60,000 nt of DNA from Schmidtea polychroa (GCA_044892525.1 CM097885.1:33234001-33294000); one strand, 5' to 3'. Positions 7,856-47,371 are shown, counted from the stretch's first letter. Numbers and translations: made by a program. Notes: generated by a model not told the origin, from the sequence alone.

Positions 7856-7947
7856 AATTAAAGTAGGTAGTTAGGAGCCCGCTGCAGCAACTCCCCCCCT
7901 GCTGCACGATTTTTTTTGCTGCAACTTTTTATTACGCAATTGTTCCA

Positions 7948-8330: not shown

Positions 8331-8339
8331 CGTGGTAAA

Positions 8340-12668: not shown

Positions 12669-12699
<31 letters not shown>

Positions 12700-13189: not shown

Positions 13190-13329
13190 ATATATACTAT
13201 GAGTTTATCCGACAGGATGTTTTGACCCCCTAAGGGTACAGGTCGTAAAGGTACTGGTCGTAAGGGTACTGGTCGTAAATGTATTAGTCGTAAGGGTACT
13301 GGTCGTAAGGATATTGTTAACACTCAACC
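13190..13329 (-). promoter_or_regulatory. conserved Polinton-associated module (15-bp repeats + palindrome + TATA), divergent copy
   Basis: TATATACT...TATCCGACAGGATGTTTTGACCCCCTAAGGGTA followed by about 6 GGTCGTAAGGGTACT-type units. Function is inferred. Confidence 0.55.
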
Positions 13330-15720: not shown

Positions 15721-16330
15721 AAAATTTATTCTATCACTTAATTATTAACCTAATTGTCAATGAAATTAATTTTTATTTTAAAACTATTCAATAAAATACA
15801 ACTAATTATCAAGAAATTAATTAAATTTAATTAAATTTATCACCATTAAAACTTTTAATCAGTCAACATGAAATTCTTAGAAAATTATTCAATATGCTCA
15901 TCAAAATTTATCCTATCACTTGATTATTGTACAAACTTTAATTATTAACCTCATTAAAAATAAATTTTTATTTAAAATTAAAAAACCAATCAATAAAAAT
16001 ACATTCAATTATCAAGAAATTAATTAAATTTACCTTAGAATTAGCATTAAATTACAGATATTCACAAAAAATTACGGAAATTCATGAAAATAATAGAAAT
16101 TCACAAAAATAATGGAAATTCACAAAATTGATAAAAAATCACAAAAATGATAGAAAATTACAAAAAATGATAGAAATTCATAAAAATGATAGAAATTCAT
16201 AAAAATGATAGAAATCCGCAAAAATGATAGAAATTTACTTGAATATTTACTAAAACCATCAACTCTAAAAATTATCAATGAATGCCTTAAACAAATTTGC
16301 CTAATTAATCATTCAAATAAAAGCATTAAA

Positions 16331-16437
16331 TACCTTTACGACTAATACCCTTGCGACATGTTGAATGTGAGTAGTACCCTTGTGAGCAATACCCATAGGG
16401 GGACAGAATATTTTGTCGGATAAACTCAGAGTATATA
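16331..16437 (+). promoter_or_regulatory. conserved Polinton-associated module
   Basis: TACCCTTG...TACCCATAGGGGGACAGAATATTTTGTCGGATAAACTCAGAGTATATA. Confidence 0.6.
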
Positions 16438-16605
16438 TTAATTAACTCATTCAAATTTTTCATTGAATTAGTAAAATTATCATAATTTCGATAAAAATTC
16501 TAAAGTGGTAAGCAATGTAAAGAGAATTATTCTTTAAACTTTGATAAAATTAACAATGAAGGTGGTAAGAATCATCATTAAAGTGAGGAAATTATTCATT
16601 ACTCG

Positions 16606-22896: not shown

Positions 22897-23021
22897 ACAA
22901 CTCGCAAGGGTATTATTAAACAAAACATACATTTATTTAAACAATAAAATAATTTAACAAGGGTTATGTAAATACAAAGTCATTTTATTATTAACATTAT
23001 TATTTTTATTACAATTAATAT

Positions 23022-23406
<385 letters not shown>

Positions 23407-23751
23407 TTATTATTTTCAAGGTCATTTATTTTTTTCAAGGTCATATTATTATTTTTCAAAATATTATTTATTTTCAAAATAATGTCTTTGTCCCCGCGGT
23501 TTATTTTTGTTTTAATTATATAATAATAATATTTTTACTTTTGTTTTAATTATCGAATACGTAATAATTTAATTTTGTTTAACTCGTTGATTATAGAATA
23601 ATAATATATTTTTATTTTAATTATTGATTACGTAATAATTTAATTTTGTTTAAATCGTTGATTATATAATATATTTTTTGTTTTGAATATTCTTCTTCTT
23701 CTTCTTATTATTATTATTATTACTTTTATTATTATTATTATTATTATTATA

Positions 23752-23895
<144 letters not shown>

Positions 23896-24090
23896 TGCAA
23901 ATATTCATAAAACCTAATTTCTACGTCCATTTCATCCTTTTCAGAATTTTAATAATTTTCAATATTTTCACGGTTTTCAACATTTTTAACTTAACATCGA
24001 ATATTTTTCAAAGTATTATTTTCAAAGAATTATTTTAAAATTATTTTCAAAGTTTATTATTATTATTATTATTTGCGAAGTTCTTATTAT

Positions 24091-24130
24091 TTTTGTCCCC
24101 CTATGGATATTGCTCATTTGGGTAATGGTC
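24091..24130 (-). promoter_or_regulatory. partial conserved module at inner arm boundary of C
   Basis: TTTGTCCCCCTATGGATATTGCTCATTTGGGTAATGGTC. Confidence 0.45.
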
Positions 24131-25554
24131 CTATTGAAGGAATATTGTTATCGGATGGATAAATCTTTCAATGATATTTTGCTAAATTACCTTTGTTAAA
24201 TATTATTTTAAATGACTAAAAAAGAGAAAATTAACCAATATTCTTAAATTATTCACACAAAATATCCATGTTTTGGTTACTCAAAAATCCCAATGTAAAA
24301 ATGTTAACCATATATTTCTCACAAAGATATATTACACCCAATGATCATTAAATTAGAAAAGAATTGTAACCCTATATTTCTAACTAATAAGCACCTTAAT
24401 TGGTTAAATGATAACCAAATGATCATGTTTCTATTATGACTCCTTTTTGACTCGAACAAAGACAGAAATTTACTCCAAATGATAGACTTTCTACCAAATT
24501 ATCAATGAATATATGTTGTTATTAATGATTATGCATTTCTAACTAAATTACCTAAGAATTTTTAACTAATATACATATGCCTTAATTAATATACCCTCGG
24601 GTCTTGCACTAGGCTTTAAAATAAGCTATCGATCGATGAAATAAATGATCATGTTTCTATTATGACTCCTTTTGACTTGAACAAAGACAGAAATTTACTC
24701 CAAATGATAGACTTTCTACCAAAATTATCAATGAATATATGTTGTTATTAATGATTATGCATTTCTAACTAAATTACCTAAGGTTTTTATTGATTAATTT
24801 GTTGTATATTGCATTGATACACCAAAATGTTAGATAATATTTATAAATTAACTAAAAAATACACAAAAATACTATATAACCTAAGAATTCTGTTATGTTT
24901 CTAGTTAAATAATTGGTATATGTATCAACTATATAAAAATTGTTATGAATCCAAGAATATTTTAATTAAATGGTACAACCAAAAACATGGATTTCTAACT
25001 AAATTGGTAAATTTATCTGGAAATATTTTACTTAAGAAATTCCTATATTTAAAATAACCATGTACTTTTCAGTAAATTACCTAAAGATTTGCTATACGGT
25101 ATTATTAAATAAAATAAGAATAAAATTAAAAATAATAATAATATTATGTCAGGGCATGAAAAAATAATATAATTGTTTGACTAATAAATTTGCAATACAA
25201 GCGCATAATTAACAAAGACTTTGCAATAAATGGGCATGATTAACAAAGACAATAGAAATATTATCTTTGCATTTTGTCGAAGATGATTATGGCAGTAAAA
25301 TCAGAGGAGAATCAATGGACAGAAGAAAAGCATCATTATGATTTATAATAATTGTAAATATAATTGTATATATATTTGTATATAATATATAATTGTATAT
25401 ATATTTGTATATAATATATAATTGTATATATATAATTGTAAATTTCCATATATATAAATAACACTATTTCAAAAATTAATACAAATGAATGTGTTTTAAT
25501 CAAAAAGTATTACAATAAAACAATAAATTTATAAAAACAAATTAAAACATTTAT

Positions 25555-25803
25555 TTACGAAACAATAATAACCAAGACCATTGTAACACATAATGTCAAC
25601 TTTAAAATATTGATTAGGGTTTCTTCTACTTTTCGAGCATTTTCATGGTTTTTGCGAAGATCTTTTTCCCATTTTGATGAACTCATGGGTATCCCTTCAT
25701 CATATCTTCAACATTTGGTAGTTGCGCCCAATATATTTAATTACCAAGATGATTTCATATTATTTGATAATTTTTCCCGTCATAATCCATTACCATAATT
25801 CAT
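25555..25803 (-). pseudogene. small decayed ORF with hydrophobic C-terminus
   Basis: Reads ...KWEKDLRKNHENARKVEETLINILKLTLCVTMVLVIIVS*, with the stop overlapping AATAAA. The 5' part is disrupted. Confidence 0.35.
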
Positions 25804-25822
25804 TTGATATAATATTGAGAAC

Positions 25823-26571
25823 TTACATATATATAGTATGATATTCATTAATCTATGTTGAACAAGCTTGGCAATTGTGAACATTCTTCTCGTGACACTT
25901 AGAACAAACAATTACGTGACCACACGTAAATACAAAACAGAAACTTGATTTTCTTTACAAATTGAACAAGTTAAATACCTTTTCTTAACATCGTTCAGTT
26001 TTTCCGTTAGCTTATTTTCAATCAAAGACTTTTGCTATCCATTCATAAATCAATCTACTATATCCCGGTTTCAACCTTAAATATCTGCAACTCCAAAAGT
26101 ATTCATTCAGTGAATCGTTGTTTACCACTATTTTTTCTAAATACATTAAATAACTAGATAACTTCAAAATGCATTTATCATAATTAAATAAATCAAATAT
26201 TCAATAGAGGAATGTTTGAAAATTTTTAAAATATTTATGATTTGCTTATCACTGTAAGTATCATGATTATTTATAAAATCTTCAACTGTATTAAAAAATT
26301 TCAATGAACGCTTATCTTCGGAATAGGTTGGACTTAATTTTTCCTTATTTCTAGTAGGATTTCCTTGCTATAAATGACATATATAAAAAATATTGACAAA
26401 ATAATAAAGTTACCAAATGTGTTTTGTGATTTACACATTCATATTCATACTTGTAGAAATCATCAGTAATAAATAAATTTCTTAATAACTAAATTACTTT
26501 TGTTTTTACATTTATAACGATTGAGAAAGCCAATCAAATTAGAGTTTTTAAAATGTAGAAATTGTAACCAT
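25823..26571 (-). pseudogene. C-terminal RING finger (IAP/C3HC4-type) protein pseudogene in element C
   Basis: Reads TCSICKENQVSVL / FTCGHVIVCSKC...NCQACST*INEYHTIYM*, with a frameshift and an internal stop. There is a putative 46-nt GT-AG intron at 26368-26413. Confidence 0.7.
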
Positions 26572-26626
26572 GGTTTAACCTTCAAATGTCTAAGTAACAT
26601 CATATTGTATAATAATAAGCATGACT

Positions 26627-26699
26627 AGTACCCTTGCAACCTGTTGAGTGTGAGCAGTACCCATAGGGGGACAAAATATTTTGTCGGATAGACTAGGAG

Positions 26700-26707
<8 letters not shown>
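26627..26707 (+). promoter_or_regulatory. conserved Polinton-associated module (perfect GACAAAATATTTTGTC palindrome)
   Basis: TACCCTTGC...TACCCATAGGGGGACAAAATATTTTGTCGGATAGACTAGGAGTATATA. Confidence 0.6.
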
Positions 26708-26783
<76 letters not shown>

Positions 26784-27373
26784 TAATAATAATAATAATA
26801 TACTTTGGAAATAAATAATAAGAAATTTGAAAATAATTTTGAAAATGATAATAATAATATTTTATAAATAAAATAAGAATTTTGAAGAAAATAATAATGA
26901 AAATATTGAAAATCGTGAAAATTATGAAAATGTTAAAAATCATGAAAATATAGAAAATGATGAAAATATTGAAAATTATGTAAACGTTAAAAATTTTGAA
27001 AATGTTCCTGAAAAAAAAAATTATCAAATATTGAAAATGATGAAAAGGTTCCTGAAAATAATCATCAAATATTGAAAATCGTAAATTGATGCAGAAATTA
27101 AGTTTTATGAATATTTAAGTAAATAATAATAATGAAACTTCTAAAATAATAATTAGAACTTTGCAAATAATAATAAAAGAAATAATAATAATAAAAAACA
27201 ATAATATTTATGCAAAGCATGTGCAATAATTATGTCTTTGTTAAAATAGTCAACTTTAGCGTCAAAATAAGTTTTTAAAATATATTTAAATTTCAAAATA
27301 CCGCAACGTAATATATTTGTTGTCCTACCCTTCATTGATTTAAGTTGGTTGGAATTAAATAATAATTATATTA

Positions 27374-27452
27374 TACCCTTTGAGACATGTTAAATGTGAG
27401 TAGTACCTTTATGACCATTACCCAAATGAGCAATACCCATAGGGGGACAAAA
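27374..27452 (+). promoter_or_regulatory. partial conserved module
   Basis: TACCCTTTGAGAC...TACCCATAGGGGGACAA, truncated within the palindrome. Confidence 0.5.
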
Positions 27453-27653
27453 ATAATAAGAACTTCACAAATAATAATATTAATAATAATAATAATAATA
27501 ATAAAAAACTTTGAAAATAATTTTAAAATAATTCTTTGAAAATAATACTTTGAAAAATATTCGATATGTTGAAAATCGTGAAAATATTGAAAATTATTAA
27601 AATGCTTAAAAAATTGAAATGGACGTAGAAATTAGGTTTTATGAATATTTGCA

Positions 27654-27815
<162 letters not shown>

Positions 27816-28119
27816 TATAATAATAATAATAAAAATAATAATAAGAAGAAGAAGAAGAAGAAGAAGAATATTCAAAACAAAAAAATATATTTTATAATCA
27901 ACGATTTAAACAAAATTAAATTATTACGTATTCGATAATTAAAACAAAAGTAAAAATATTATTATTATATAATTAAAACAAAAATAAACCGCGGGGACAA
28001 AGACATTATTTTGAAAATAAATAATATTTTGAAAAATAATAATATGACCTTGAAAAAAATAAATGACCTTGAAAATTAATAATATTTTAAAAATAATAAT
28101 ATGACCTTGAAAATAATAA

Positions 28120-28216
<97 letters not shown>

Positions 28217-28248
28217 TTAATAGTAATAATAATATTAATTGTAATAAA

Positions 28249-28390
<142 letters not shown>

Positions 28391-28508
28391 GTAATAATAA
28401 TATTAATTGTAATAAAAATATTAATGTTAATAATAAAATGACTTTGTATTTACATAACCCTTGTTAAATTATTTTATTGTTTAAATAAATGTATGTTTTG
28501 TTTAATAA

Positions 28509-28600
28509 TACCCTTGCGAGTTGTTGAGTGTGAGCATTACCTTTGTGAGCATTACCCATAGGGGGACAGAATATTTTGTCGGATAGACTAGGAGTATATA
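28509..28600 (+). promoter_or_regulatory. conserved Polinton-associated module
   Basis: Full copy ending GGATAGACTAGGAGTATATA. Confidence 0.6.
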
Positions 28601-28646
28601 TAATATATTAATATATATTATATATTAATACTAATAATACTAATAC

Positions 28647-28798
<152 letters not shown>

Positions 28799-28799
28799 T

Positions 28800-29577
28800 T
28801 AATAATATATGGCTCTTTCAAAAGGTCTTGGATTGGGCTTTAAAATGAGCTATCGATGAACAATTTTCGTTGGCGGGAACTCTGTAAATTTAAATTTTAA
28901 AATATGACCTTGAAAAAAAATGACTTTGAAAAAAAAATGACCTTGAAAAAATAATTTATTGAAAAATAATAATAGGACCTTGAAAATAATAATATTTTGA
29001 AAAATAATAATAAAATAGTCAAATGACCTTGAAAATGGTCTCGGGAAAACGTTAATAACTTTGCCAATAATAATGATGATGGTACCTTCAATAGCTCAGT
29101 CGAAAGGTCTTGCGCTAAGCTTCAAATTAATCTATCGTTTAATAAATTCGAATAATGGGAACGATAACCTTTGGGCAAACGAAAACCAGGGGCCCGCTGG
29201 ACCACTAATAATATTTTTGAATAATAATAATAAAATAATAATATATTTTAAAAATAATAATATGACCTTGGATGAGTCATGGTCTTTGTTTAAATGACCT
29301 TGATGAGTCATATGTCTTTGTTTAAAATTTAACCTTGAAAAAATAAATGACCTTGAAAATAATAATATTTTGAAAAATAATAATAATTATATGACCTTGA
29401 AAATGGTCTCGGGAAAACGTTAATAACTTTAAGCTATCGTTTAATTAATTCGGATAATGGGAACGATAACTTTTGGGCAAACGAAAACCAGGGGCCTGCT
29501 GGACCACTAATAATATTTTGAATAATAATATTTTAACTATGAAAATAAGGTGGTCATCGTTTGTTAATAACTTTACC

Positions 29578-29611
<34 letters not shown>

Positions 29612-29950
29612 TTTATATATCAACAGATAGATATTGCACTGGGCTTTAAAATGAGCTATCGATCGATGAAATAAAATGATTGGAACGATAACTTTTGGGC
29701 AAACGAAAACCAGGTTCCCGATGGACCACTTAATAATATTTTGAATAATAATAATAAAATAATAATATTTTTTAAACATAATAATATGACCTTGATGAGT
29801 CATTACGATGAGTCATGCGACCTTGGGAATGACCTTGGATGAGTCATGCGACCTTGAAATGACCTTGATGAGTCATCGGATGAGTCATAGTCTTTGTTTA
29901 AATGACCTTGATGAATCATGTGTCTTTGTTTAAAATTTGACCTTGAAAAA
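28800..29950 (+). repeat. subterminal repeat units of C with TGACCTTGA and ATGAGTCAT clusters
   Basis: Diverged homologues of the units at 45690-47100. Confidence 0.75.
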
Positions 29951-30140
29951 AATTTTTTTTTTAAATTTCCGGCCGGGGGGAGGGGGGGGGTATATGTGGT
30001 CCAGAGGGCCCCTTGGTTAGATGGCCCCATACCATCTACTCCATCCATTTTTGCTGGTTGCTGAATATATTTAAATAACTCTATCAATTTGCTTATTTTT
30101 AATTAATTTATTCAGTATCTATTTTAATGAATTCTCATCC

Positions 30141-31115
30141 TTAAGGGAGAGGGGGGACAATATTCCATTCTTCCGAAAAATCACTGCTTTTACCAGAGGT
30201 GTATATTCGGCTCCCAGGAACAAGATATGAATTTTTCGCCTTCAGTCCCCCGCGAAAATATCTTAGTTTTAAATGAAGATTCGAGATCTATATTATGAAT
30301 TACATTTAAAACAAAAACATTGATATTAATTTCTCTATTCAAGTGGGCTCTATATATTAATAAAATGAGTTTATTAGAACAAAGATTCCTATTTCGCGCA
30401 ATAATATGAGAAATTTGAACAAAGATTTGAAATATCCATCAAAAACTATAAGGAAAGTTCAAAGTCCTGTCAAATATCTCAATTTTTCGATGAAGTGTCA
30501 TAAATAAATACCACAATACATAGCCGAATTTTTGAGAATTATCAATTGAATTTTGCTTTTTCTTAATTCCTTGGAGAACTAGGATTTTATTTAGATTCTT
30601 CTTAGTTGAACCAATACTTAAGTTTTTCATGAAGAATGTCTCAACTAGTTATGTCGCGGTCCCAATGTCCCAAAAGATTCCTTAAATAACACAAAAAGAA
30701 TATCGAAAAGAAATAGTTTCCTAGATTTTTGTGTAAAATCTTGCTTGTCGTTAAAAAACATATCATTTTCATGTAGAATATCTAGATAATATATGATTTC
30801 TATATTAAGAATAACCAAAAAACACATCTGACTATAAACCAGATTGCACTATGCACATTTTTTACAATAATTATATTTTTTATGGTACAAAATATTTGAG
30901 TGCTTCTGATTAAAGTCTAAAAACCAAAAATAGTTTTCACTAAGTCAGAAATTGCTCTTTGAACTTTTTTGCATATTTTGAAGTTCAGAATTAATCATGC
31001 GCGATTACTCGTTCGAACAACGCGCGGAAACTGATTTCGCGAGATTGCAAAACAGGTGCTATTTTCTAGGGGGATGGAGGAAGGGTAATATGCGCGATAA
31101 CTGATAGTGGTTTAT
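30141..31115 (-). mobile_element. interspersed repeat, probable non-autonomous DNA transposon (copy 2)
   Basis: Inverted homology to 6810-7375. TTAA-GGGAGAGGGGGG at 30141 resembles a Kolobok-type end, but the other end was not found. Confidence 0.6.
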
Positions 31116-31605
31116 GAGGCTGGTATGATATTCAGTGGAAAATATGAAATAAGAATCTGCTTACAAGATTTTTTATCTCGGTGTCTCATTAGCAGATTAG
31201 CCATTCTTATTGTACATTTAATACGGGTTCAAATAAACAATATTCTGTCATTATAATTCTAAAATAAGCTTTGTAAATTATTAAAAAAATTTTATTAATA
31301 TAGTAAATTTATAAAATAATATTTCAATTAATATAATTTCATATAATTATTATATTGTTGGAATCTTTATCTGTTCAAACAAGTTATGTTTCAGAAAATG
31401 TTTTTTTTAATAATTTTTCTTAATTTTTATCAATAATTACATTGACTTAAACCAAATTTCATGCAAAAAGGTACTTTAATTGATTTTTGAATAATTTAAG
31501 TTATAATTTTACTTTACTCTTACTGCCACTTCAGTTTCTAAATAAATAAAAATCAATTTAAAAATTAATAACAAATAATGACCAAATAATTATAAAATAC
31601 TTTAA

Positions 31606-31847: not shown

Positions 31848-32039
31848 TTAATTATAAAATTAATTAAAATGCTTTCTTGAAATTCGGTCCTTTATATATG
31901 TAAGTAGTATGATTGGTCCCCGCCAGACCAGGTCCCCTCCAGACCACATATACCCCCTCCCCCCCCCCCCGGGAAAAAAAAAAAAATTTTTTTTTTTAAT
32001 TTTTTGTTTTAATTAATTGGCCTGGAGGGGACACACTTT

Positions 32040-33390
32040 TTTTCATCCCAAAAATTAATGTTCCCACCAACGGATTTTATTGGACAATACCTCATCTTAA
32101 AGCTCAGTCCAAGACCTTTCGATTGATCCATAGAAGGTATCATCATCATTAATATTGACAAAGTTATTAACAATTGATGACCACCATCTTTTCAACGTTA
32201 AATTATTATTATTATTCAAAATATTATTAATTGGCCGGGCGGGGACATACTTTTTCTCATCCCAAAAATTAATGTTCCCATTATCCGAATTTATTAATAG
32301 ATAGCTTATTTTGAAGCGTAGTCTAAGACCTTTCAATTGAGCCATAGAAGGTATCATCATCATTAACATCGGCAAAGTTATTAAAGTTTTACCGAGACCA
32401 TTTTTCAAGGTCATTTATTTTTCAAAATATTATTTTCAAGGTCAAGGTCAAGGTCATTTATTTTTTTCAAGGTCATTTATTTTTTCAAGGTCATTTATTT
32501 TTTCAAGGTCATTTATTTTTTCAAGGTCATTTATTTTTTCAAGGTCATTTATTTTTTCAAGGTCATTTATTTTTTCAAGGTCATATTTTAAAATTTAAAT
32601 GTACAGAGTTCCCGACAACGATAATTATTCAACGATAGCTCATTTTAAAGCCCAATGCAAGACCTTTCGATTGATTCATAGAAGGTATCATCATCATTAT
32701 TATTGACAAAGTTATTAACAATTGATGACCACCATCTTTTCAACGTTAAATTATTATTATTATTCAAAATATTATTAATTGGCCGAGCGGGGACATACTT
32801 TTTCTCATCCCAAAAATTAATGTTCCCACCAACGGATTTTATTGGACGATACCTCATTTTAAAGCCCAATGCAAGACCTTTCGAATGAGCTAATGAAGGT
32901 ATCATCATCATTATTATTGACAAAGTTATTAACATTTTACCAAAAATCATTTTCAAGGTCATATAATTATTAAGTGGTCTGGCGGGCCCCTACTCTTTTT
33001 CATCCCAAAAATTAATGTTCCCATTATCCGAATTTATTGGACGATACCTCATCTTAAAGCTCAGTCCAAGACCTTTCGAATGAGCCATAGAAGGTATCAT
33101 CATCATTAATATTAACAAAGAGAATGACTCACCCAATGACTCACCCAACGATGTCTAATATTTTTAGAACGATGACTCATCAAGGTCATTCCCAAGGTCA
33201 TATGACTCATCAAGGTCAAGGTCATTTTTTTTTAATTTAATTTTTTGTTTTAATTAAGTAATCTTTTTATTTTCAAGGTCATTTAATTTTCAAGGTCATT
33301 TAATTTTCAAGGTCATTTAATTTTTCAAGGTCATTTAATTTTCAAGGTCATTTACTTTTCAAGGTCATTTAATTTTTCAAGGTCATTTAT
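32040..33390 (-). repeat. subterminal ~550-570 bp tandem units and 16-17 bp TCAAGGTCA arrays
   Basis: Repeated 105-aa pseudo-ORFs, plus (TTTTTCAAGGTCATTTA)n at ~32405-32585 and ~33270-33386. Mirrored at 45517-47130. Confidence 0.9.
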
Positions 33391-33428
33391 TAAAATAATT
33401 ATTATTTTCTAAGTTTTTAGTTTCTAAG

Positions 33429-33462
<34 letters not shown>

Positions 33463-33465
33463 TTA

Positions 33466-33540
<75 letters not shown>

Positions 33541-33626
33541 ATATATACACCGAGTTTATCCGACAAAATATTCTGTCTCCCTATGGGTATTGCTAGCAAG
33601 GGTACTACTCACACTCAACAAGTCAC
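33541..33626 (-). promoter_or_regulatory. conserved Polinton-associated module
   Basis: TATCCGACAAAATATTCTGTC core, mirror at 45274-45360. Confidence 0.6.
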
Positions 33627-33760
33627 ATGGTTATTGTTCACAAAGGTACTGGTAAAAATATTCAAGGTAAAATTTTCTAAATTCTAAATATTATTCTTTA
33701 AATATACGCTCAACTCATATAATTAGTGGTGTGCTCACTACAACATACATTTCAAAGTAA

Positions 33761-33842
<82 letters not shown>

Positions 33843-33874
33843 TATTATTACGCGCACCGGGAATATTATTATCA

Positions 33875-33985
33875 TATATACTCTTAATCTATCCGACAAA
33901 ATATTTTATCCCTTTATGGGTATTGCTCATATGGGTAATGGTAGCAAGGTGTACTACTCACATTCAACATGTCTCAAAGGGTATA
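33875..33985 (-). promoter_or_regulatory. conserved Polinton-associated module
   Basis: TATCCGACAAAATATT core, mirror at 44913-45022. Confidence 0.6.
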
Positions 33986-34206
33986 ATATAATTATTATTA
34001 AATTCTGACCAACTTAAATCAATGAAGGGGTAGAACAAAAATATATTAAGTTGCGGTATTTTAAAATTTAAAAATATTTTAAAAACTTATTTTGACACTA
34101 AAGTTTACTTAATTAACAAAGACATAATTATTGCACATGCTTTGCATAAATATTATTATTTTTTAAATTTTCAATATTTTCTTTTAAAGTATTAACACGC
34201 GCGGGA

Positions 34207-34251
<45 letters not shown>

Positions 34252-34259
34252 GTTAATGA

Positions 34260-34957
34260 AAAATCTAAAATATGGTTTACACACACAACCCCTCAACCAT
34301 TATTATTATTATCAGTATTAAAAACCTAAAATATTTTCTACACACACACACACACACAACCCATTAACCATTATTATTATTATTATCAATATCAAAAACC
34401 TAAAATATTATTTACACACATACAACTCATTAAACTTATTATTATTATTATTATTATTGCAAATATTAGTCAAAAACCTAAAATATTATTTACACTCACA
34501 CAACCCATTAACAATTATTATTATCAATATTAGTCAAAAACCTAAAATATTATTTACACATGCACAACTCATTAACCATTATTATTATCATTATTAGTGA
34601 AAACCTAAAATATTTTTTACACACACACACAACCCACTAACAATTATTATTATCAATATTAAAAACCTAAAATATTTTTACACACACACACATACAACTC
34701 ATTAAACTTATTATTATTATCATTATTAGTGAAAACATAAAATATTTTTTTACACACACACACACAACCCATTAACAATTATTATTATCAATATTAAAAA
34801 CCTAAAATATTTCTACACACACACACATGCACAACTCATTAACCATTATTATTATTGCAAATATTAGTCAAAAACATAAAAACACTCATAAACCATTATT
34901 ATTATCAATATTCGTGAAAACCTAGAATATTATTTACACTCACACAACCCATTAAAC

Positions 34958-34960
<3 letters not shown>
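34260..34960 (+). repeat. ~60-70 bp minisatellite (AAAACCTAAAATATT...ACACACAACCCATTAA)
   Basis: About 11 degenerate units, mirror at ~43940-44640. Confidence 0.85.
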
Positions 34961-35014
<54 letters not shown>

Positions 35015-35186
35015 ATTATTATTATTATTAGTGAAAAAACCTTAAATAATTTTTACATACTAAGTTATGGGGTAGAGTATTATTATGTTTGCAGTATTCT
35101 GTGTTTGCCTTTACAGGAAGTTGTCAATAAGGAGCGATAATTTTACACACACATTCTATATACACATACCTTGTTTAACATGGGTG

Positions 35187-35280
35187 TATATACTCCTAGT
35201 CTATCCGACAAAATATTCTGTCCCCCTATGGGTATTGCTCACAAAGGTACTACTCACACTCAACATATCGCAAGGGTATA
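35187..35280 (-). promoter_or_regulatory. conserved Polinton-associated module
   Basis: Full copy, mirror at 43621-43712. Confidence 0.6.
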
Positions 35281-35373
35281 TTAATTATGGTTAGTAAATA
35301 AAACCTATCACACACACTTTTATATTTAAACTATAAAAATCAAGACAAGAGAGGACAAGGCAAAGTTTATGCA

Positions 35374-37047
35374 TTTATTATTGCCAGGCCTAATGAGCAG
35401 TGACCAAATATCTGTGCCTGAAAGACACGGTGGATATTTGTTCGCGTCCACAAGGGTCGTCTGTGCCTTCCCCAAGTGGGGTCAAAAGAACCTGGGCATT
35501 ATAGTTTTCCGTACGGAACATTACGCCTAGCATGGGTAGTCAACTACCAGCACATTCGAAACGTATAATTTCAAAATACATGCGTCATTGGCACTATAAC
35601 CAAATTAATTAATGTTTTCACTAACACAAATATATATTTACAGAGGCCTCCCACTAGTTGGATTACAACCGCCCACCACGACGATCAGCTTGTAAATATA
35701 TATTAATTAAGGGATAAAGAGGACCCACCCAACCCTATTATATTTAATTTACAAATTTTTCTCGCTCTTCTGCTGGTATTCTATCTCAAATTATCATCTC
35801 CATCGGGCCATTTGGAATACATCTTGCAAATTGGACGTATTTCTTAGTCTCTGATGCGGCGTCAACTATCATTGCTAAAATTTATATTGATTTAAAAGCA
35901 ATTAACTTACATTATCTAGCATTTTATCGTCACAGGCTTGATAAATTAGGCAACTGTTATTTGTGGTATACTTTTTCAATGTCATTTCCCACCATAAAAC
36001 ACAGATACCTAAATATAATATATATATATTTTAAAGAATTAATTCATGTCTTACATTAATAATAATATTCTTCAGGTAGTACTTTACAATATCTAATTGC
36101 TAAAACATTGGTTTTTCCCATTTTTCTTGACATTCGTTGAAAGATTACATAATTTAAGTCTGATAATTCATGTTGAAGGACACCCACAATCAGCTAATTC
36201 ATTTAAAAAATCTAGAACATAGCAATGTTTCACCATTTTGTCTGGTTCATTTTCTTCTATAATTCATGTTTTAATAAGAAATTTCTAAATCCAGAACATA
36301 AGTCATTTAGTGTTTCACCATTTTGTTCATCTTCTTCATAATTATATAATTCATTTTCTTCATTACTAAGTAAAATAATTAAAATATTGTAGTAAATTCT
36401 TTATTTGCTTACTTTATGGATACTAAAACGAAAGAAATAAAGTTATTTCAAAAGTATATTTAAATAATTTAAATTTAAATAATTTAAATTTAGTTATTTA
36501 AACATATTTAAACAATTTAGTTATTTAAGCATATTTAAACATTAACATTATTATATAGTATAATTTTATATAATATTATAATTTTATGTACACTTATATA
36601 TCCTTCATTTAATTTTTTAAATTCAAAATTTATAATGAAGATTCTTTGAATTAAAAAATATTCTGTTAGTATTTCCAAACAGAAAACAACGAATTCAATA
36701 ATTAAAATCTTAATTTTCATGTTGTTAGGGTTGTGGCCAGAAGTTAATCGCCATCTAATCGTTTGTTCTCAATTTCGCTCATTTTTGTTCAAAACATTCA
36801 GGTGAGTTGTTATCTGGAAAGTTTCTTTGAGCTCAGTTTTGTTAAAACACTCACGGTATTTTTGAGGGACGTGACACTGGGAATAAATTAACAATGGGTG
36901 GTCATCCATACATGTTGTTGGTTTGAACTGTTGATTTATTTTAGAAATATGTATATTAAAAACATTTAAGGTATCATTCAGTAAAATAATATAGTATTTT
37001 TGAGTATTTTTAGTTGATTTATAAATAACAGTATTTTGATATATCAA
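35374..37047 (-). pseudogene. intron-containing cargo pseudogene(s), left-arm copy
   Basis: Reverse complement of 41853-43526. Confidence 0.5.
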
Positions 37048-37055
37048 TAAAGACC

Positions 37056-37141
37056 ATATACTCCTAGTTTATCCGACAAAATATTCTGTCCCCCTATGGG
37101 TAATGCTAGCAAGGGTACTGGTCACACTCAACAAGTCGCAA
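37056..37141 (-). promoter_or_regulatory. conserved Polinton-associated module (differs from its mirror)
   Basis: Full copy with several differences from 41757-41843. Confidence 0.6.
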
Positions 37142-38835
37142 TATTAATCATTTAGAAATTCTTAGGTAATTTAGTGAGATGATCAGAAATTCGTGAATAT
37201 TTTAAATGTAACTTTACACTTATGTCGAGCGACTAATTTATTGGTTAACTTTGTAGTCATTTAAAGCAAAAATTAATTTATTCATCTAATGTTCGTTACA
37301 ATAGTTAATAATATGAGAAAAACATGGTCATTATTCATTGATAATTTTAAATTCTTTATCATTTGGAGTAAATTTGTTTGAGGCAAAAATAATTAAAGGA
37401 GTCATAATAGAAATATGGTTATCATTTATCCAATTAAGGGGCCTATTATTTAGAAATATAAAGTAACAATTATTTTCTAATTTAATTAGATGATCATTAG
37501 ACGTAATATATCTTTGCGAGAAATTTAAGATGTTTGAGTAACCAAAACATGGACATTTTGTGCGATAAATTTATGAATATTGGTTATTTTTAGTCATTTA
37601 AAATAATATTTAGCAAAGGTAATTTAGCAAAATATCATTTATCCACCCGATAACAATATTCCTTCAATAGATTAACTGATATTCAACCTATTTAATTTCT
37701 GGAAATATAATTAAAATCATAAATTTCCTTCATGAAAGTTAAATTTTCTTTAGTTGTCGATGTCTAACTCTTTTAAGTCAATATTTTTGTTACCGTTATC
37801 TTCATAATGAATGTCCGTCTTTAAAATGTTAAATAAAATAATTTAAAGCAATAACCTTTGATATCAATTATCTCTAAATATTTCAAATATTGCATTGTCA
37901 AAACCAAGTAAATTAGTCATTACCCATTAATAAAACCGTGGATAATTAATAAAAACTGGTTCTGAAACATAAATTACTGTGCAATAACATTCATCACAAC
38001 CTCTAAAACGATATAATTTCACAGGAACTATTCATAGCTGACTATTTCCCTTGAAAATTTGATATTTTACCAATAAGAATATATAAATATTCAAAACATT
38101 AACCGATCCCTCACCAAATATCTTTACCCCTTAAAACACCTTAAATCGTATATATTACCATCTTAACCTTCACTAAATCCAACCGAATATAATTTCATCC
38201 ACTTGTGCCCTTTAATAAATCTTAAAATCTATAGAAAATTCTTCAAAATATGAATTTTATTTAATTGTCACAGACATTCCTCCATTGAAATAATTTAGTA
38301 GCTAAATTCAAAGAGTCCACTAAAAGATCAAAATTCATTAAAATAAATATTTAACCACATGTGTCATCAAATACCTAACTAGAGATGATAATATCTCATT
38401 GATTGATCATAATTATAACCATTATAACATGATATATCTTTCAAACTAAATTTAGGTATATTTTACAATAATTTTCAAGTAGATTTTAAATATATCATCA
38501 TCGTGAAAAAATTAGATTGTTTCAACTTTAGATTTTCAATATTTTAAAGTTCATCAATGTGTAAATATTCTTAGAAAAATATATGAAAAAATTATTTAGT
38601 CAAATTATCATTACAAAGTCATCATCATCATCAAAATTAATAAAATATAGCAAATTATCAATAAATTAATTAAATTTATCTTAGAATTAACACTAAACCT
38701 TAAATATTCTTTCAATTAACATGAAATTCACAAAAAAAAAATGTTAGTAAAATCCCGCTAACTCTAAAAAATTACCAATGAATTTAATGCCAAATAATAA
38801 CCAAATATTTGCCTAAATAAAATCATTAAAACACA

Positions 38836-38949
38836 CCAGTACCTTTACGACCAGTACCCTTACGACCAGTACCCTTACGACCAATACCCTTACAAGCAGT
38901 ACCCATAGAGGGAGAAAATATTTTGTCGGATAAACTCCGAGTATATATA
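38836..38949 (+). promoter_or_regulatory. conserved module with expanded 15-bp CCAGTACCCTTACGA repeats
   Basis: 4-5 units followed by TACCCATAGAGGGAGAAAATATTTTGTCGGATAAACTCCGAGTATATA. Confidence 0.6.
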
Positions 38950-39946
38950 TAATAAAACGAATTAACAATAACTCCATCAAATTGAATCAGTCAAATTATC
39001 ACAAATTTTAATAAAAAATCTTATTCTAAAGTGGTAAGCAGCGTAAAATCGAAAGATAATTTTAATAACACAGAGATAAAATTAACAATATTATTCTCAG
39101 GTGGTAAGAATCATCATTATTCTATGATTAATTAATAATGAAATTCAAAAAGGTGAAAATAAGGGTTTGAATTATTCATTAATGGAACGTAAACGTAAAT
39201 ATACCGAGAAGTGTCATAGATAAGATGGAAATATATTAATTGCATTTATTTAAAATTATTTCATGAAATTCATAAAAATTTATAAAAATGATCACTTTAA
39301 TAAAAAAAAAATATTTAATTCAATGTTCAAAGAAATAGTTGTTGGGAGGATTAGTGGAAAATGGGGGGGGGGGCTATAAGTGATGAGTATTTATAAATTA
39401 TTTCTAATATATGAGTGACTAACGAATAATAATAATGTGATAAACAATTATTTTGATAAAGTATTTAATCCAAAAATGACAAACATACATAACAAATGGT
39501 ATTTGACTAAGCAATTATGATAACTTTATATTTTAAATTTTGATTAACTCCTTTAATATTGAATTAATAATTATGAGATTTACTATTTTACATTAAATAT
39601 TTCAAAAACAGTTATTCTAAAAGATAATTCAAGATACATTACTCTTTTTAATCAAAATAATCTCTCAAAGTTAAGAAAATAACAAAGTGTGTCAGAACAC
39701 ATACCCAGCATTAACTTTACTTAAATTTATGAAAACATCAAGTAAGCAATGATAATAGAGGGATAACAGACTCAAAAATAAAATATTCTTACCACCTGAG
39801 AATAATATTGTTAATTTTATCTCTGTGTTATTAAAATTATCTTTCGATTTTACGCTGCTTACCACTTTAGAATAAGATTTTTTATTAAAATTTGTGATAA
39901 TTTGACTGATTCAATTTGATGGAGTTATTGTTAATTCGTTTTATTA

Positions 39947-40060
39947 TATATATACTCGGAGTTTATCCGACAAAATATTTTCTCCCTCTATGGGTACTGC
40001 TTGTAAGGGTATTGGTCGTAAGGGTACTGGTCGTAAGGGTACTGGTCGTAAAGGTACTGG
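39947..40060 (-). promoter_or_regulatory. conserved module (mirror of 38836-38949)
   Basis: Reverse complement copy. Confidence 0.6.
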
Positions 40061-41756
40061 TGTGTTTTAATGATTTTATTTAGGCAAATATTTGGTTATT
40101 ATTTGGCATTAAATTCATTGGTAATTTTTTAGAGTTAGCGGGATTTTACTAACATTTTTTTTTGTGAATTTCATGTTAATTGAAAGAATATTTAAGGTTT
40201 AGTGTTAATTCTAAGATAAATTTAATTAATTTATTGATAATTTGCTATATTTTATTAATTTTGATGATGATGATGACTTTGTAATGATAATTTGACTAAA
40301 TAATTTTTTCATATATTTTTCTAAGAATATTTACACATTGATGAACTTTAAAATATTGAAAATCTAAAGTTGAAACAATCTAATTTTTTCACGATGATGA
40401 TATATTTAAAATCTACTTGAAAATTATTGTAAAATATACCTAAATTTAGTTTGAAAGATATATCATGTTATAATGGTTATAATTATGATCAATCAATGAG
40501 ATATTATCATCTCTAGTTAGGTATTTGATGACACATGTGGTTAAATATTTATTTTAATGAATTTTGATCTTTTAGTGGACTCTTTGAATTTAGCTACTAA
40601 ATTATTTCAATGGAGGAATGTCTGTGACAATTAAATAAAATTCATATTTTGAAGAATTTTCTATAGATTTTAAGATTTATTAAAGGGCACAAGTGGATGA
40701 AATTATATTCGGTTGGATTTAGTGAAGGTTAAGATGGTAATATATACGATTTAAGGTGTTTTAAGGGGTAAAGATATTTGGTGAGGGATCGGTTAATGTT
40801 TTGAATATTTATATATTCTTATTGGTAAAATATCAAATTTTCAAGGGAAATAGTCAGCTATGAATAGTTCCTGTGAAATTATATCGTTTTAGAGGTTGTG
40901 ATGAATGTTATTGCACAGTAATTTATGTTTCAGAACCAGTTTTTATTAATTATCCACGGTTTTATTAATGGGTAATGACTAATTTACTTGGTTTTGACAA
41001 TGCAATATTTGAAATATTTAGAGATAATTGATATCAAAGGTTATTGCTTTAAATTATTTTATTTAACATTTTAAAGACGGACATTCATTATGAAGATAAC
41101 GGTAACAAAAATATTGACTTAAAAGAGTTAGACATCGACAACTAAAGAAAATTTAACTTTCATGAAGGAAATTTATGATTTTAATTATATTTCCAGAAAT
41201 TAAATAGGTTGAATATCAGTTAATCTATTGAAGGAATATTGTTATCGGGTGGATAAATGATATTTTGCTAAATTACCTTTGCTAAATATTATTTTAAATG
41301 ACTAAAAATAACCAATATTCATAAATTTATCGCACAAAATGTCCATGTTTTGGTTACTCAAACATCTTAAATTTCTCGCAAAGATATATTACGTCTAATG
41401 ATCATCTAATTAAATTAGAAAATAATTGTTACTTTATATTTCTAAATAATAGGCCCCTTAATTGGATAAATGATAACCATATTTCTATTATGACTCCTTT
41501 AATTATTTTTGCCTCAAACAAATTTACTCCAAATGATAAAGAATTTAAAATTATCAATGAATAATGACCATGTTTTTCTCATATTATTAACTATTGTAAC
41601 GAACATTAGATGAATAAATTAATTTTTGCTTTAAATGACTACAAAGTTAACCAATAAATTAGTCGCTCGACATAAGTGTAAAGTTACATTTAAAATATTC
41701 ACGAATTTCTGATCATCTCACTAAATTACCTAAGAATTTCTAAATGATTAATATAG

Positions 41757-41843
41757 CCTTGTGACATGTTGAATGTGACCAGTACCCTTGCTAGCAATAC
41801 CCATAGGGGGACAGAATATTTTGTCGGATAGACTAGAAGTATA
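41757..41843 (+). promoter_or_regulatory. conserved Polinton-associated module
   Basis: Full copy directly upstream of the cargo pseudogene. Confidence 0.6.
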
Positions 41844-41852
41844 TGGTCTTTA

Positions 41853-43526
41853 TTGATATATCAAAATACTGTTATTTATAAATCAACTAAAAATACTCAA
41901 AAATACTATATTATTTTACTGAATGATACCTTAAATGTTTTTAATATACATATTTCTAAAATAAATCAACAGTTCAAACCAACAACATGTATGGATGACC
42001 ACCCATTGTTAATTTATTCCCAGTGTCACGTCCCTCAAAAATACCGTGAGTGTTTTAACAAAACTGAGCTCAAAGAAACTTTCCAGATAACAACTCACCT
42101 GAATGTTTTGAACAAAAATGAGCGAAATTGAGAACAAACGATTAGATGGCGATTAACTTCTGGCCACAACCCTAACAACATGAAAATTAAGATTTTAATT
42201 ATTGAATTCGTTGTTTTCTGTTTGGAAATACTAACAGAATATTTTTTAATTCAAAGAATCTTCATTATAAATTTTGAATTTAAAAAATTAAATGAAGGAT
42301 ATATAAGTGTACATAAAATTATAATATTATATAAAATTATACTATATAATAATGTTAATGTTTAAATATGCTTAAATAACTAAATTGTTTAAATATGTTT
42401 AAATAACTAAATTTAAATTATTTAAATTTAAATTATTTAAATATACTTTTGAAATAACTTTATTTCTTTCGTTTTAGTATCCATAAAGTAAGCAAATAAA
42501 GAATTTACTACAATATTTTAATTATTTTACTTAGTAATGAAGAAAATGAATTATATAATTATGAAGAAGATGAACAAAATGGTGAAACACTAAATGACTT
42601 ATGTTCTGGATTTAGAAATTTCTTATTAAAACATGAATTATAGAAGAAAATGAACCAGACAAAATGGTGAAACATTGCTATGTTCTAGATTTTTTAAATG
42701 AATTAGCTGATTGTGGGTGTCCTTCAACATGAATTATCAGACTTAAATTATGTAATCTTTCAACGAATGTCAAGAAAAATGGGAAAAACCAATGTTTTAG
42801 CAATTAGATATTGTAAAGTACTACCTGAAGAATATTATTATTAATGTAAGACATGAATTAATTCTTTAAAATATATATATATTATATTTAGGTATCTGTG
42901 TTTTATGGTGGGAAATGACATTGAAAAAGTATACCACAAATAACAGTTGCCTAATTTATCAAGCCTGTGACGATAAAATGCTAGATAATGTAAGTTAATT
43001 GCTTTTAAATCAATATAAATTTTAGCAATGATAGTTGACGCCGCATCAGAGACTAAGAAATACGTCCAATTTGCAAGATGTATTCCAAATGGCCCGATGG
43101 AGATGATAATTTGAGATAGAATACCAGCAGAAGAGCGAGAAAAATTTGTAAATTAAATATAATAGGGTTGGGTGGGTCCTCTTTATCCCTTAATTAATAT
43201 ATATTTACAAGCTGATCGTCGTGGTGGGCGGTTGTAATCCAACTAGTGGGAGGCCTCTGTAAATATATATTTGTGTTAGTGAAAACATTAATTAATTTGG
43301 TTATAGTGCCAATGACGCATGTATTTTGAAATTATACGTTTCGAATGTGCTGGTAGTTGACTACCCATGCTAGGCGTAATGTTCCGTACGGAAAACTATA
43401 ATGCCCAGGTTCTTTTGACCCCACTTGGGGAAGGCACAGACGACCCTTGTGGACGCGAACAAATATCCACCGTGTCTTTCAGGCACAGATATTTGGTCAC
43501 TGCTCATTAGGCCTGGCAATAATAAA
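41853..43526 (+). pseudogene. intron-containing cargo pseudogene(s) of unknown family, right-arm copy
   Basis: Five short AT-rich GTAA...AG intron candidates (42488-42534, 42846-42891, 42990-43025, 43148-43211, 43259-43306) separate GC-richer exons with in-frame stops. AATAAA lies at 43521. Confidence 0.5.
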
Positions 43527-43620
43527 TGCATAAACTTTGCCTTGTCCTCTCTTGTCTTGATTTTTATAGTTTAAATATAAAAGTGTGTGTGATAGGTTTT
43601 ATTTACTAACCATAATTAAT

Positions 43621-43712
43621 ATACCCTTGCGATATGTTGAGTGTGAGTAGTACCTTTGTGAGCAATACCCATAGGGGGACAGAATATTTTGTCGGATAGA
43701 CTAGGAGTATAT
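43621..43712 (+). promoter_or_regulatory. conserved Polinton-associated module
   Basis: Full copy. Confidence 0.6.
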
Positions 43713-43885
43713 ACACCCATGTTAAACAAGGTATGTGTATATAGAATGTGTGTGTAAAATTATCGCTCCTTATTGACAACTTCCTGTAAAGGCAAACACA
43801 GAATACTGCAAACATAATAATACTCTACCCCATAACTTAGTATGTAAAAATTATTTAAGGTTTTTTCACTAATAATAATAATAAT

Positions 43886-43939
<54 letters not shown>

Positions 43940-44645
43940 GTTTAATGGGTTGTGTGAGTGTAAATAATATTCTAGGTTTTCACGAATATTGATAATAATA
44001 ATGGTTTATGAGTGTTTTTATGTTTTTGACTAATATTTGCAATAATAATAATGGTTAATGAGTTGTGCATGTGTGTGTGTGTAGAAATATTTTAGGTTTT
44101 TAATATTGATAATAATAATTGTTAATGGGTTGTGTGTGTGTGTGTAAAAAAATATTTTATGTTTTCACTAATAATGATAATAATAATAAGTTTAATGAGT
44201 TGTATGTGTGTGTGTGTAAAAATATTTTAGGTTTTTAATATTGATAATAATAATTGTTAGTGGGTTGTGTGTGTGTGTAAAAAATATTTTAGGTTTTCAC
44301 TAATAATGATAATAATAATGGTTAATGAGTTGTGCATGTGTAAATAATATTTTAGGTTTTTGACTAATATTGATAATAATAATTGTTAATGGGTTGTGTG
44401 AGTGTAAATAATATTTTAGGTTTTTGACTAATATTTGCAATAATAATAATAATAATAATAAGTTTAATGAGTTGTATGTGTGTAAATAATATTTTAGGTT
44501 TTTGATATTGATAATAATAATAATAATGGTTAATGGGTTGTGTGTGTGTGTGTGTGTAGAAAATATTTTAGGTTTTTAATACTGATAATAATAATAATGG
44601 TTGAGGGGTTGTGTGTGTAAACCATATTTTAGATTTTTCATTAAC

Positions 44646-44690
<45 letters not shown>

Positions 44691-44912
44691 TCCCGCGCGT
44701 GTTAATACTTTAAAAGAAAATATTGAAAATTTAAAAAATAATAATATTTATGCAAAGCATGTGCAATAATTATGTCTTTGTTAATTAAGTAAACTTTAGT
44801 GTCAAAATAAGTTTTTAAAATATTTTTAAATTTTAAAATACCGCAACTTAATATATTTTTGTTCTACCCCTTCATTGATTTAAGTTGGTCAGAATTTAAT
44901 AATAATTATATT

Positions 44913-45022
44913 ATACCCTTTGAGACATGTTGAATGTGAGTAGTACACCTTGCTACCATTACCCATATGAGCAATACCCATAAAGGGATAGAATATTTTG
45001 TCGGATAGATTAAGAGTATATA
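44913..45022 (+). promoter_or_regulatory. conserved Polinton-associated module
   Basis: Full copy. Its upstream block 44735-44915 is also present in element C at ~27200-27375. Confidence 0.6.
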
Positions 45023-45054
45023 TGATAATAATATTCCCGGTGCGCGTAATAATA

Positions 45055-45139
<85 letters not shown>

Positions 45140-45273
45140 TTACTTTGAAATGTATGTTGTAGTGAGCACACCACTAATTATATGAGTTGAGCGTATATTT
45201 AAAGAATAATATTTAGAATTTAGAAAATTTTACCTTGAATATTTTTACCAGTACCTTTGTGAACAATAACCAT

Positions 45274-45359
45274 GTGACTTGTTGAGTGTGAGTAGTACCC
45301 TTGCTAGCAATACCCATAGGGAGACAGAATATTTTGTCGGATAAACTCGGTGTATATAT

Positions 45360-45360
<1 letters not shown>
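45274..45360 (+). promoter_or_regulatory. conserved Polinton-associated module
   Basis: Full copy. Confidence 0.6.
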
Positions 45361-45437
<77 letters not shown>

Positions 45438-45440
45438 TAA

Positions 45441-45474
<34 letters not shown>

Positions 45475-47371
45475 CTTAGAAACTAAAAACTTAGAAAATA
45501 ATAATTATTTTAATAAATGACCTTGAAAAATTAAATGACCTTGAAAAGTAAATGACCTTGAAAATTAAATGACCTTGAAAAATTAAATGACCTTGAAAAT
45601 TAAATGACCTTGAAAATTAAATGACCTTGAAAATAAAAAGATTACTTAATTAAAACAAAAAATTAAATTAAAAAAAAATGACCTTGACCTTGATGAGTCA
45701 TATGACCTTGGGAATGACCTTGATGAGTCATCGTTCTAAAAATATTAGACATCGTTGGGTGAGTCATTGGGTGAGTCATTCTCTTTGTTAATATTAATGA
45801 TGATGATACCTTCTATGGCTCATTCGAAAGGTCTTGGACTGAGCTTTAAGATGAGGTATCGTCCAATAAATTCGGATAATGGGAACATTAATTTTTGGGA
45901 TGAAAAAGAGTAGGGGCCCGCCAGACCACTTAATAATTATATGACCTTGAAAATGATTTTTGGTAAAATGTTAATAACTTTGTCAATAATAATGATGATG
46001 ATACCTTCATTAGCTCATTCGAAAGGTCTTGCATTGGGTTTTAAAATGAGGTATCGTCCAATAAAATCCGTTGGTGGGAACATTAATTTTTGGGATGAGA
46101 AAAAGTATGTCCCCGCTCGGCCAATTAATAATATTTTGAATAATAATAATAATTTAACGTTGAAAAGATGGTGGTCATCAATTGTTAATAACTTTGTCAA
46201 TAATAATGATGATGATACCTTCTATGAATCAATCGAAAGGTCTTGCATTGGGCTTTAAAATGAGCTATCGTTGAATAATTATCGTTGTCGGGAACTCTGT
46301 ACATTTAAATTTTAAAATATGACCTTGAAAAAATAAATGACCTTGAAAAAATAAATGACCTTGAAAAAATAAATGACCTTGAAAAAATAAATGACCTTGA
46401 AAAAATAAATGACCTTGAAAAAATAAATGACCTTGAAAAAATAAATGACCTTGAAAAAAATAAATGACCTTGACCTTGACCTTGAAAATAATATTTTGAA
46501 AAATAAATGACCTTGAAAAATGGTCTCGGTAAAACTTTAATAACTTTGCCGATGTTAATGATGATGATACCTTCTATGGCTCAATTGAAAGGTCTTAGAC
46601 TACGCTTCAAAATAAGCTATCTATTAATAAATTCGGATAATGGGAACATTAATTTTTGGGATGAGAAAAAGTATGTCCCCGCCCGGCCAATTAATAATAT
46701 TTTGAATAATAATAATAATTTAACGTTGAAAAGATGGTGGTCATCAATTGTTAATAACTTTGTCAATATTAATGATGATGATACCTTCTATGGATCAATC
46801 GAAAGGTCTTGCATTGGGCTTTAAAATGAGCTATCGTTGAATAATTATCGTTGTCGGGAACTCTGTACATTTAAATTTTAAAATATGACCTTGAAAAAAT
46901 AAATGACCTTGAAAAAATAAATGACCTTGAAAAAATAAATGACCTTGAAAAAATAAATGACCTTGAAAAAATAAATGACCTTGAAAAAATAAATGACCTT
47001 GAAAAAAATAAATGACCTTGACCTTGACCTTGAAAATAATATTTTGAAAAATAAATGACCTTGAAAAATGGTCTCGGTAAAACTTTAATAACTTTGCCGA
47101 TGTTGGGAACATTAATTTTTGGGATGAAAAAAAGTGTGTCCCCTCCAGGCCAATTAATTAAAACAAAAAATTAAAAAAAAAAATTTTTTTTTTTTTCCCG
47201 GGGGGGGGGGGGAGGGGGTATATGTGGTCTGGAGGGGACCTGGTCTGGCGGGGACCAATCATACTACTTATGTATATATGATCTTATAAGAATTTCTATA
47301 AAATTTTATTAATATTTAAATTTAATAATTAAAAAAGCTTTTAAATTTATTTGATAAACTTTTCTTAATAT

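Follow-up and report, generated by a model that had tools for sequence, protein, structure and literature searches.

The window analysed here, a stretch of 60,000 nt (25.5% GC, no N), contains a gene-less foldback element, element B, together with two further foldback elements, A and C, and remnants of hAT-type transposases. The base composition and the hAT-type remnants are compatible with an AT-rich animal genome. Element B starts with AGTAGT, ends with ACTACT and is bordered on both sides by a perfect 6-bp duplication, TATGTA (Table 1); these are the ends, (AGT)2//(ACT)2 or (AG)3//(CT)3, and the duplication length by which Polintons/Mavericks are recognised. In the sections of PMC8097293 cited here, Mavericks/Polintons are described with (AGT)2//(ACT)2 ends, a 6-bp target duplication and a length of about 15 kb, and element B resembles them in all three respects. 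On the other hand, it differs from them in having no genes and in its arms of 7.2-7.5 kb, compared with 46-1,447 bp in the intact vertebrate Mavericks of the same source. No stop-free frame of element B exceeds 114 aa, and accordingly the Polinton/Maverick genes for pPolB, integrase, ATPase, protease and capsid were not found in it; a Pfam search of its two 105-aa ORFs gave no match. Element B has Polinton-type ends, yet it is no autonomous Polinton. A Mutator-type foldback element with a 9-10 bp duplication was considered as the identity of the host and dropped, because the 6-bp duplication and the AGTAGT ends were confirmed. Our literature search, with most subscription papers outside its coverage, found no account of gene-less giant palindromic Polintons or of module-level conversion within them.

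Table 1. Features of element B and their positions in the window
Feature	Coordinates	Strand	Remarks
Element B, gene-less foldback element	31903..47268	.	15,366 bp; (AGT)2...(ACT)2 ends
Target-site duplication TATGTA, left copy	31897..31902	+	6 bp
Target-site duplication TATGTA, right copy	47269..47274	+	6 bp
Left arm	31903..39111	+	from the arm alignment
Right arm	39785..47268	-	from the arm alignment
Non-palindromic spacer	39112..39784	.	673 bp
Left-arm module copy	37056..37141	+	head with 16-bp near-dyad, ~15-bp units; 5 nt fewer at 3' end than other copies
Right-arm mirror module with difference cluster	41754..41844	-	41837, 41831, 41797, 41773, 41766, 41755-41762
Module copy	33876..33985	+	one base (33906/44991) differs from mirror 44912-45021
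Module, mirror of 33876	44912..45021	-	16-bp exact word in common with 3' part of right-arm module; 16436 likewise
Module copy	33543..33660	+	identical to mirror 45240-45357
Module copy	35188..35282	+	identical to mirror 43618-43712; 44-bp exact match to 5' half of right-arm module; candidate, non-unique donor
Module copy	38835..38946	-	4.7 tandem 15-mers; identical to mirror 39950-40061
Only isolated substitution outside modules	32864..32864	+	G in left arm; A at 46039 in right arm, minus-strand reading
311-bp templated copy in right arm	46794..47104	-	100% identical to 32365-32675; replaces 32066-32109 of left arm
In-element donor of the 311-bp copy	32365..32675	+	18-bp array has left-arm length, not right-arm length

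Element A (7862-21264) has AGTAG...CTACT ends and a 6-bp duplication, AATTAA. Its arms show many differences over the outer 500 bp, for which the window holds no donor, and one differing base over about 3.7 kb inside 8361, as if its two ends were derived from different family variants. The same hAT-type zf-BED transposase remnant lies in both of its arms (10201-11547 and 17107-18453), which indicates that arm copying took place after the insertion. Element C (22897-30040) is a relative of B in a state of decay; its right end looks intact, while its left end and inner junctions fall inside copies of the repeat module described below. Elements A and B also share an orthologous site with homologous flanks (16255-16600 in A, 38750-39130 in B), occupied by the short module type in A and by the tandem 15-mer type in B, and in both elements the boundary between arm and spacer lies about 165-170 bp from the module of this site. 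Outside the three elements there are inverted repeat pairs at 6814-7360 and 30356-31116 (83%) and at 57546-57730 and 58415-58599 (98%). Within element B, tandem arrays of a 17-18 bp unit containing TCAAGGTCA, a putative nuclear-receptor (NR5A/ERR-type) binding word, occupy 32448-32584, 33265-33389 and their mirrors. A weak Rfam match to metazoan SRP RNA on the minus strand at 35591-35689, where the arm is richer in GC, scores 29.6 bits (gathering score 70; E 7.7e-5) and is probably due to chance.

The module is composed of a head of about 45 bp, which begins at a TA-rich word and holds a 16-bp near-dyad, followed by a variable number of units of about 15 bp. The near-dyad retains 14-16 of its 16 positions self-complementary in 9 of 11 copies. 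There are five mirror pairs of modules in element B, three of them identical, one with a single-base difference and one with the difference cluster that is the subject of this study; further copies lie at 13192 and 16436 in element A and at 24091, 26704, 27452 and 28599 in element C, and none was found in the 24,087 bp of the window outside the three elements. When the module was folded against shuffled sequences, no signal appeared (z -0.57 to +1.23 in 8 folds), and comparison with Rfam and with tRNAs (ARAGORN) gave no match and hence no known-RNA origin of the kind that defines a SINE. As terminal inverted repeats, the best end match was 8 of 10 bases in 2 of 10 copies, and no target duplication was seen. 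The module was rejected as a MITE on these grounds. The head at 37056 opens with a TATA-like word, and a promoter role, predicted from this word, is conceivable.

Public data on the module come from assembled contigs, as distinct from raw reads, of 4 of 18 runs (X15, X16, X17 and X1, from 2 studies). In these runs many contigs (166, 38, 25 and 54) begin sharply at 37056 with loose ends of AT repeat, and in 4 of 4 runs the depth of the module head is many times that of its flank, a rough figure that is not a copy number. Taken together, these two observations indicate that the module has many copies in other contexts. Exact patterns of the module head were found in 0 stretches of viral contigs and, with 33-base and 21-base patterns, in 0 of metagenome contigs.

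We aligned the left arm globally to the reverse-complemented right arm. At 36881, 37443 and 37554 both arms have the base that is the rarer one in the family, the other letter accounting for 76-100%, 70-100% and 83-100% of contig depth, and this sharing of family-rare alleles shows that the two 7-kb arms were recently made identical by arm-to-arm copying. Between 32111 and 39111 only 8 substitutions separate the arms, and 6 of them lie within one interval of 86 bp, which is the module at 37056. Five of the module substitutions are clear, at left/right positions 37063/41837 (C>T), 37069/41831 (T>C), 37103/41797 (A>T), 37127/41773 (C>T) and 37134/41766 (A>T); the right arm is a net 5 bases longer at 37137-37140, with 1-2 further changes, the number depending on where the gap is placed. 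This cluster is flanked by 2,101 bp upstream and 1,600 bp downstream in which the arms do not differ. When 8 substitutions were placed at random, 0 of 300,000 simulations put 6 of 8 within 86 bp, and 1 of 300,000 reached the alternative count of 5 of 7. The cluster is present in the assembly and is not a product of chance.

The only other substitutions in this part of the arms are 33906, inside a module, and 32864, outside the modules. The remaining arm differences are five repeat-length changes (the 18-bp unit, three of AAT, and poly-A), one change in a G run and one large replacement near the terminus. An initial annotation of this DNA had reported apparently identical flanking arm sequence around about 6 substitutions and a 4-nt indel, with the mirror module at 41757-41843, and a SNP in a second module pair (33875/44913). 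The flanks and the substitutions agree with our alignment (counting five clear changes and 1-2 more), the three word pairs it had quoted correspond to 37103, to 37063 with 37069, and to 37127, and the second SNP is real and lies at 33906/44991; the indel, however, measures 5 nt and the mirror extends over 41754-41844. An even spread of mismatches along the arms, which it had named as the contrary outcome, was not seen, considering that three quarters of the substitutions (6/8) share one 86-bp interval. The large templated replacement, the substitution at 32864 and the repeat-length and G-run changes were absent from it and were found by the arm alignment.

The large replacement gives an independent view of how differences arise in this element. 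It is a copy of 311 bp with a donor in the same element that is 100% identical, as non-allelic conversion would leave, and its junctions share 18 bp at one side and 1 bp at the other. The 18-bp array inside the copy has 7.6 units, the left-arm length, compared with 8.6 units in the right arm's own copy. Accordingly, templated copying occurs in element B, and it does not need a module.

For the module itself, the states of the right arm also point to a template. Among the 249 possible single changes to the left copy, 36 are present in other module copies of the window, giving a background of 14.5%; 5 of the 6 right-arm states are found in such copies (p=3.3e-4). The tract extends from module column 8 to about column 85, that is, over the whole module, and ends at the module ends. 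In the six colinear module copies, 27 of 45 informative site pairs contain all four gametes, which indicates that the module family has already recombined. The 5 extra bases have the same length as the common module end, with 4 of 5 letters agreeing. On the other hand, no copy in the window is 100% identical to the right-arm tract. Tiling the tract from window copies requires several of them and leaves two bases unmatched. Over 44 bp its 5' half is the same as 35188/43712, and a 16-bp word is found again in 33876/45021 and in 16436; no source in the window exists for the T of column 8, for the C among the 5 extra bases or for a 21-bp word at the 3' end, the last having no other match there within 2 mismatches. 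As a control, the longest exact matches of the left copy to other copies measure 37-38 bp, compared with 39-44 bp for the right copy, so that exact matches of this length name no donor. For the same reason 35188/43712 was not accepted as the donor. The initial annotation had proposed gene conversion or template switching between module copies, with variant states that mostly occur in other copies, and had suggested identifying donors of the variant tracts. The occurrence of the states in other copies holds (5 of 6), and a templated origin is further favoured by the tract ending with the module; a single donor within the window does not emerge, and two right-arm bases lack a source there. We consider it likely that the right-arm module was overwritten by non-allelic conversion or template switching from paralogous modules, and we give this reading a probability of about 0.6.

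The two bases without a template in the window could also be taken as the mark of an untemplated burst of clustered mutations from error-prone repair. Considering that 5 of 6 states match other copies (p=3.3e-4) and that the extra bases follow the common module end in length and in 4 of 5 letters, such a burst is extremely improbable. The same two bases, which match no other window copy, also speak against an error of assembly or polishing from mis-mapped repeat reads. Palindromes pose difficulties for assembly, repetition in this region is extreme, and the right-arm haplotype is not seen whole in contigs: T at 37103 (43-61% of depth in all four runs) is the only right-arm state that appears there. 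However, absences from the contig tables carry no weight, since the tables also lack alleles that other modules of element B carry (C in column 37069, A/C in columns 37120-37121) and contigs drop variants; for this reason the direction of conversion could not be fixed from such absences, and the attempt was rejected. The public contigs neither support nor contradict the right-arm haplotype. Mis-mapped reads would presumably affect identical arms alike and would erase differences rather than make them. Three of the other four module pairs are identical, the target duplication of element B is perfect, and the flanks retain the minority alleles at 36881, 37443 and 37554, which means that polishing did not draw the arms toward the majority state of the family. 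An artefact is thus improbable.

Another source of the tract would be a sibling copy of the element, belonging to another subfamily, whose module at the same site would have been passed on by a short allelic-like conversion or in a chimera of two siblings; in that case the conversion could also have run the other way, giving the left arm the common type. The nearest neighbour of the right module is the left module, with 5 differences in 82 columns compared with 8-10 to other copies, so that a sibling-copy donor also fits. The two mirror modules also share a site-specific middle (37104-37126), and the right module keeps a 5-nt junction that recurs at the orthologous remnant in element C near 24600. 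The region flanking the module is multi-copy and polymorphic in contigs, and one contig (X15 record 13, 37109-37207) bridges a left-type gap-free junction. However, the arms have the same base at each of the 7 flank sites checked that are polymorphic in the family, which confines the tract to 37017-about 37221, and a sibling donor would still need hypervariable modules, again pointing to conversion among modules. We regard the sibling copy as a rather unlikely source.

The initial annotation had further suggested that mismatches are enriched in modules and that the module is a recombination hotspot. Modules make up 7.5% of the arm and contain 7 of the 8 substitutions, but we set aside the binomial p of 1e-7 for this count, because changes within a cluster depend on one another. 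If each cluster is taken as a single event, 2 of 3 substitution events fall in modules (p=0.016), in partial agreement with the suggestion; when the cluster that prompted the question is left out, 1 of 2 remains (p=0.14). For a hotspot the same 2 of 3 events can be cited, against which only 1 of 5 module pairs carries a tract and other internal repeats, as well as terminal subrepeats, have also been rewritten. At least four junctions of element C lie inside module copies (22897, about 24130, about 24600, and a head loss at 24091/27452), a figure that covers the junctions inside modules. These breakpoints fall at different module columns and there is no fold signal, so a fixed breakpoint or initiating motif, as a hotspot would have, was not found. 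The module as a recombination hotspot is thus weakly supported. As other internal repeats have been rewritten too, the abundance of donors explains the pattern without a special site, and in the simplest reading overwriting happens to any repeat for which many diverged donors exist.

A more specific role for the module would follow if element B were copied by copy-back synthesis with programmed switching. Foldback Polinton passengers would re-make one arm in each replication round through the polymerase of a Polinton partner, and the 90-bp module, a 16-bp dyad with 15-mer units, would be a cis-acting template-switch site at which synthesis pauses or the strand is nicked; the right arm would then record one error-prone synthesis pass. 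Outside the cluster, four differences can be polarised: the 311-bp copy, the 18-bp unit in excess, 32864, and 33906, for which the orthologous copy at 27452 serves as reference. In all four the right arm has the derived state, although so one-sided a result (4 of 4) has a two-sided probability of 0.125. The sequence of the 311-bp copy is that of its donor as found in the left arm, but this event needed no module. The element C junctions inside module copies and the self-complementarity kept by the near-dyad would suit such a site; the different columns of those junctions, unlike a site-specific cut, and the absence of a folding signal do not, and templates within the element do not spell the 3' end of the right arm. 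The right-arm bias of the polarisable changes is the sole hint in this direction, and we consider both copy-back synthesis and a switching role of the module unlikely.

Returning to the overwrite of the right-arm module from paralogous modules, we propose a course of events that agrees with the arm comparison. As for direction, donor, repair pathway and timing, we infer that it was probably the right-arm mirror copy of the ~90-bp module that was overwritten, after or during arm copying. The repair of a break or of a stalled fork, by strand invasion or by a switch of template, may have led into another module copy; the donor could be a single copy at another place in the genome, or several short tracts could have been patched together. 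Synthesis would have stopped at the module ends because homology ends there, and the return to the element's own arm may have run through the AT-rich words at both ends of the module. Modules would gather such events because they have many donors, diverged by ~8-10%, which would make conversions visible, and no dedicated cut site would be needed.

One consequence of such events is that the divergence between arms cannot date foldback elements unless templated tracts are removed. If copy-back synthesis were true, each arm asymmetry would capture one event of synthesis, derived changes would accumulate on one of the arms, and foldback elements would shuffle segments with the module as the joint. 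A genome-wide one-arm bias together with switches fixed to modules would then be sequence evidence that bears directly on the copying of ends in Polinton-type elements.

Several known systems resemble what we observed. Dispersed Tc1 copies undergo template-directed exchange, in which repeats are rewritten from dispersed copies during repair. Element B also recalls the snap-back or copy-back genomes of linear DNA viruses, of which AAV snapback genomes are the case treated in the cited part of PMC10924063, as these are palindromic products of template switching. Both analogies are drawn by inference, and no replication intermediate or excision was observed for element B. The copying of Polinton-type ends has itself so far been inferred by analogy to adenovirus-type replication, according to the cited sections of PMC8097293. 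Related topics are treated in PMC3014272, PMC6431247 and 10.1101/2024.01.15.575659, parts of which serve here as context.

A closer likeness is found in Alu-to-Alu gene conversion, in which, as the cited parts of PMC8230782 and PMC6598467 describe, a short repeat is wholly or partly replaced at a fixed site, hybrids arise and the flanks are unchanged. Unlike Alu, the module is only ~90 bp long and was found only in the three foldback elements of the window, and its lack of consistent terminal repeats or a target duplication means that it is not shown to be a mobile element. For human LTRs, the cited sections of PMC4921805 report non-allelic conversion as SNP clusters with minimum tracts of 3-86 bp and many-donor patchworks, and the module tract is similar, with ~6 changes in ~86 bp and derived states that match paralogues; the same sections describe acceptors that are patchworks of many donors, occasional extra mutations and intra-element conversion, as seen here. 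The two cases differ in that the LTR clusters analysed there have donors of 100% identity and a direction taken from phylogeny, whereas element B offers its mirror arm as the reference and the window holds no donor of the module tract. Accordingly, the overwrite of the module most likely belongs to this known process and is not a proven special hotspot, and as an ordinary conversion tract it provides a clean example with a built-in control, the mirror arm.
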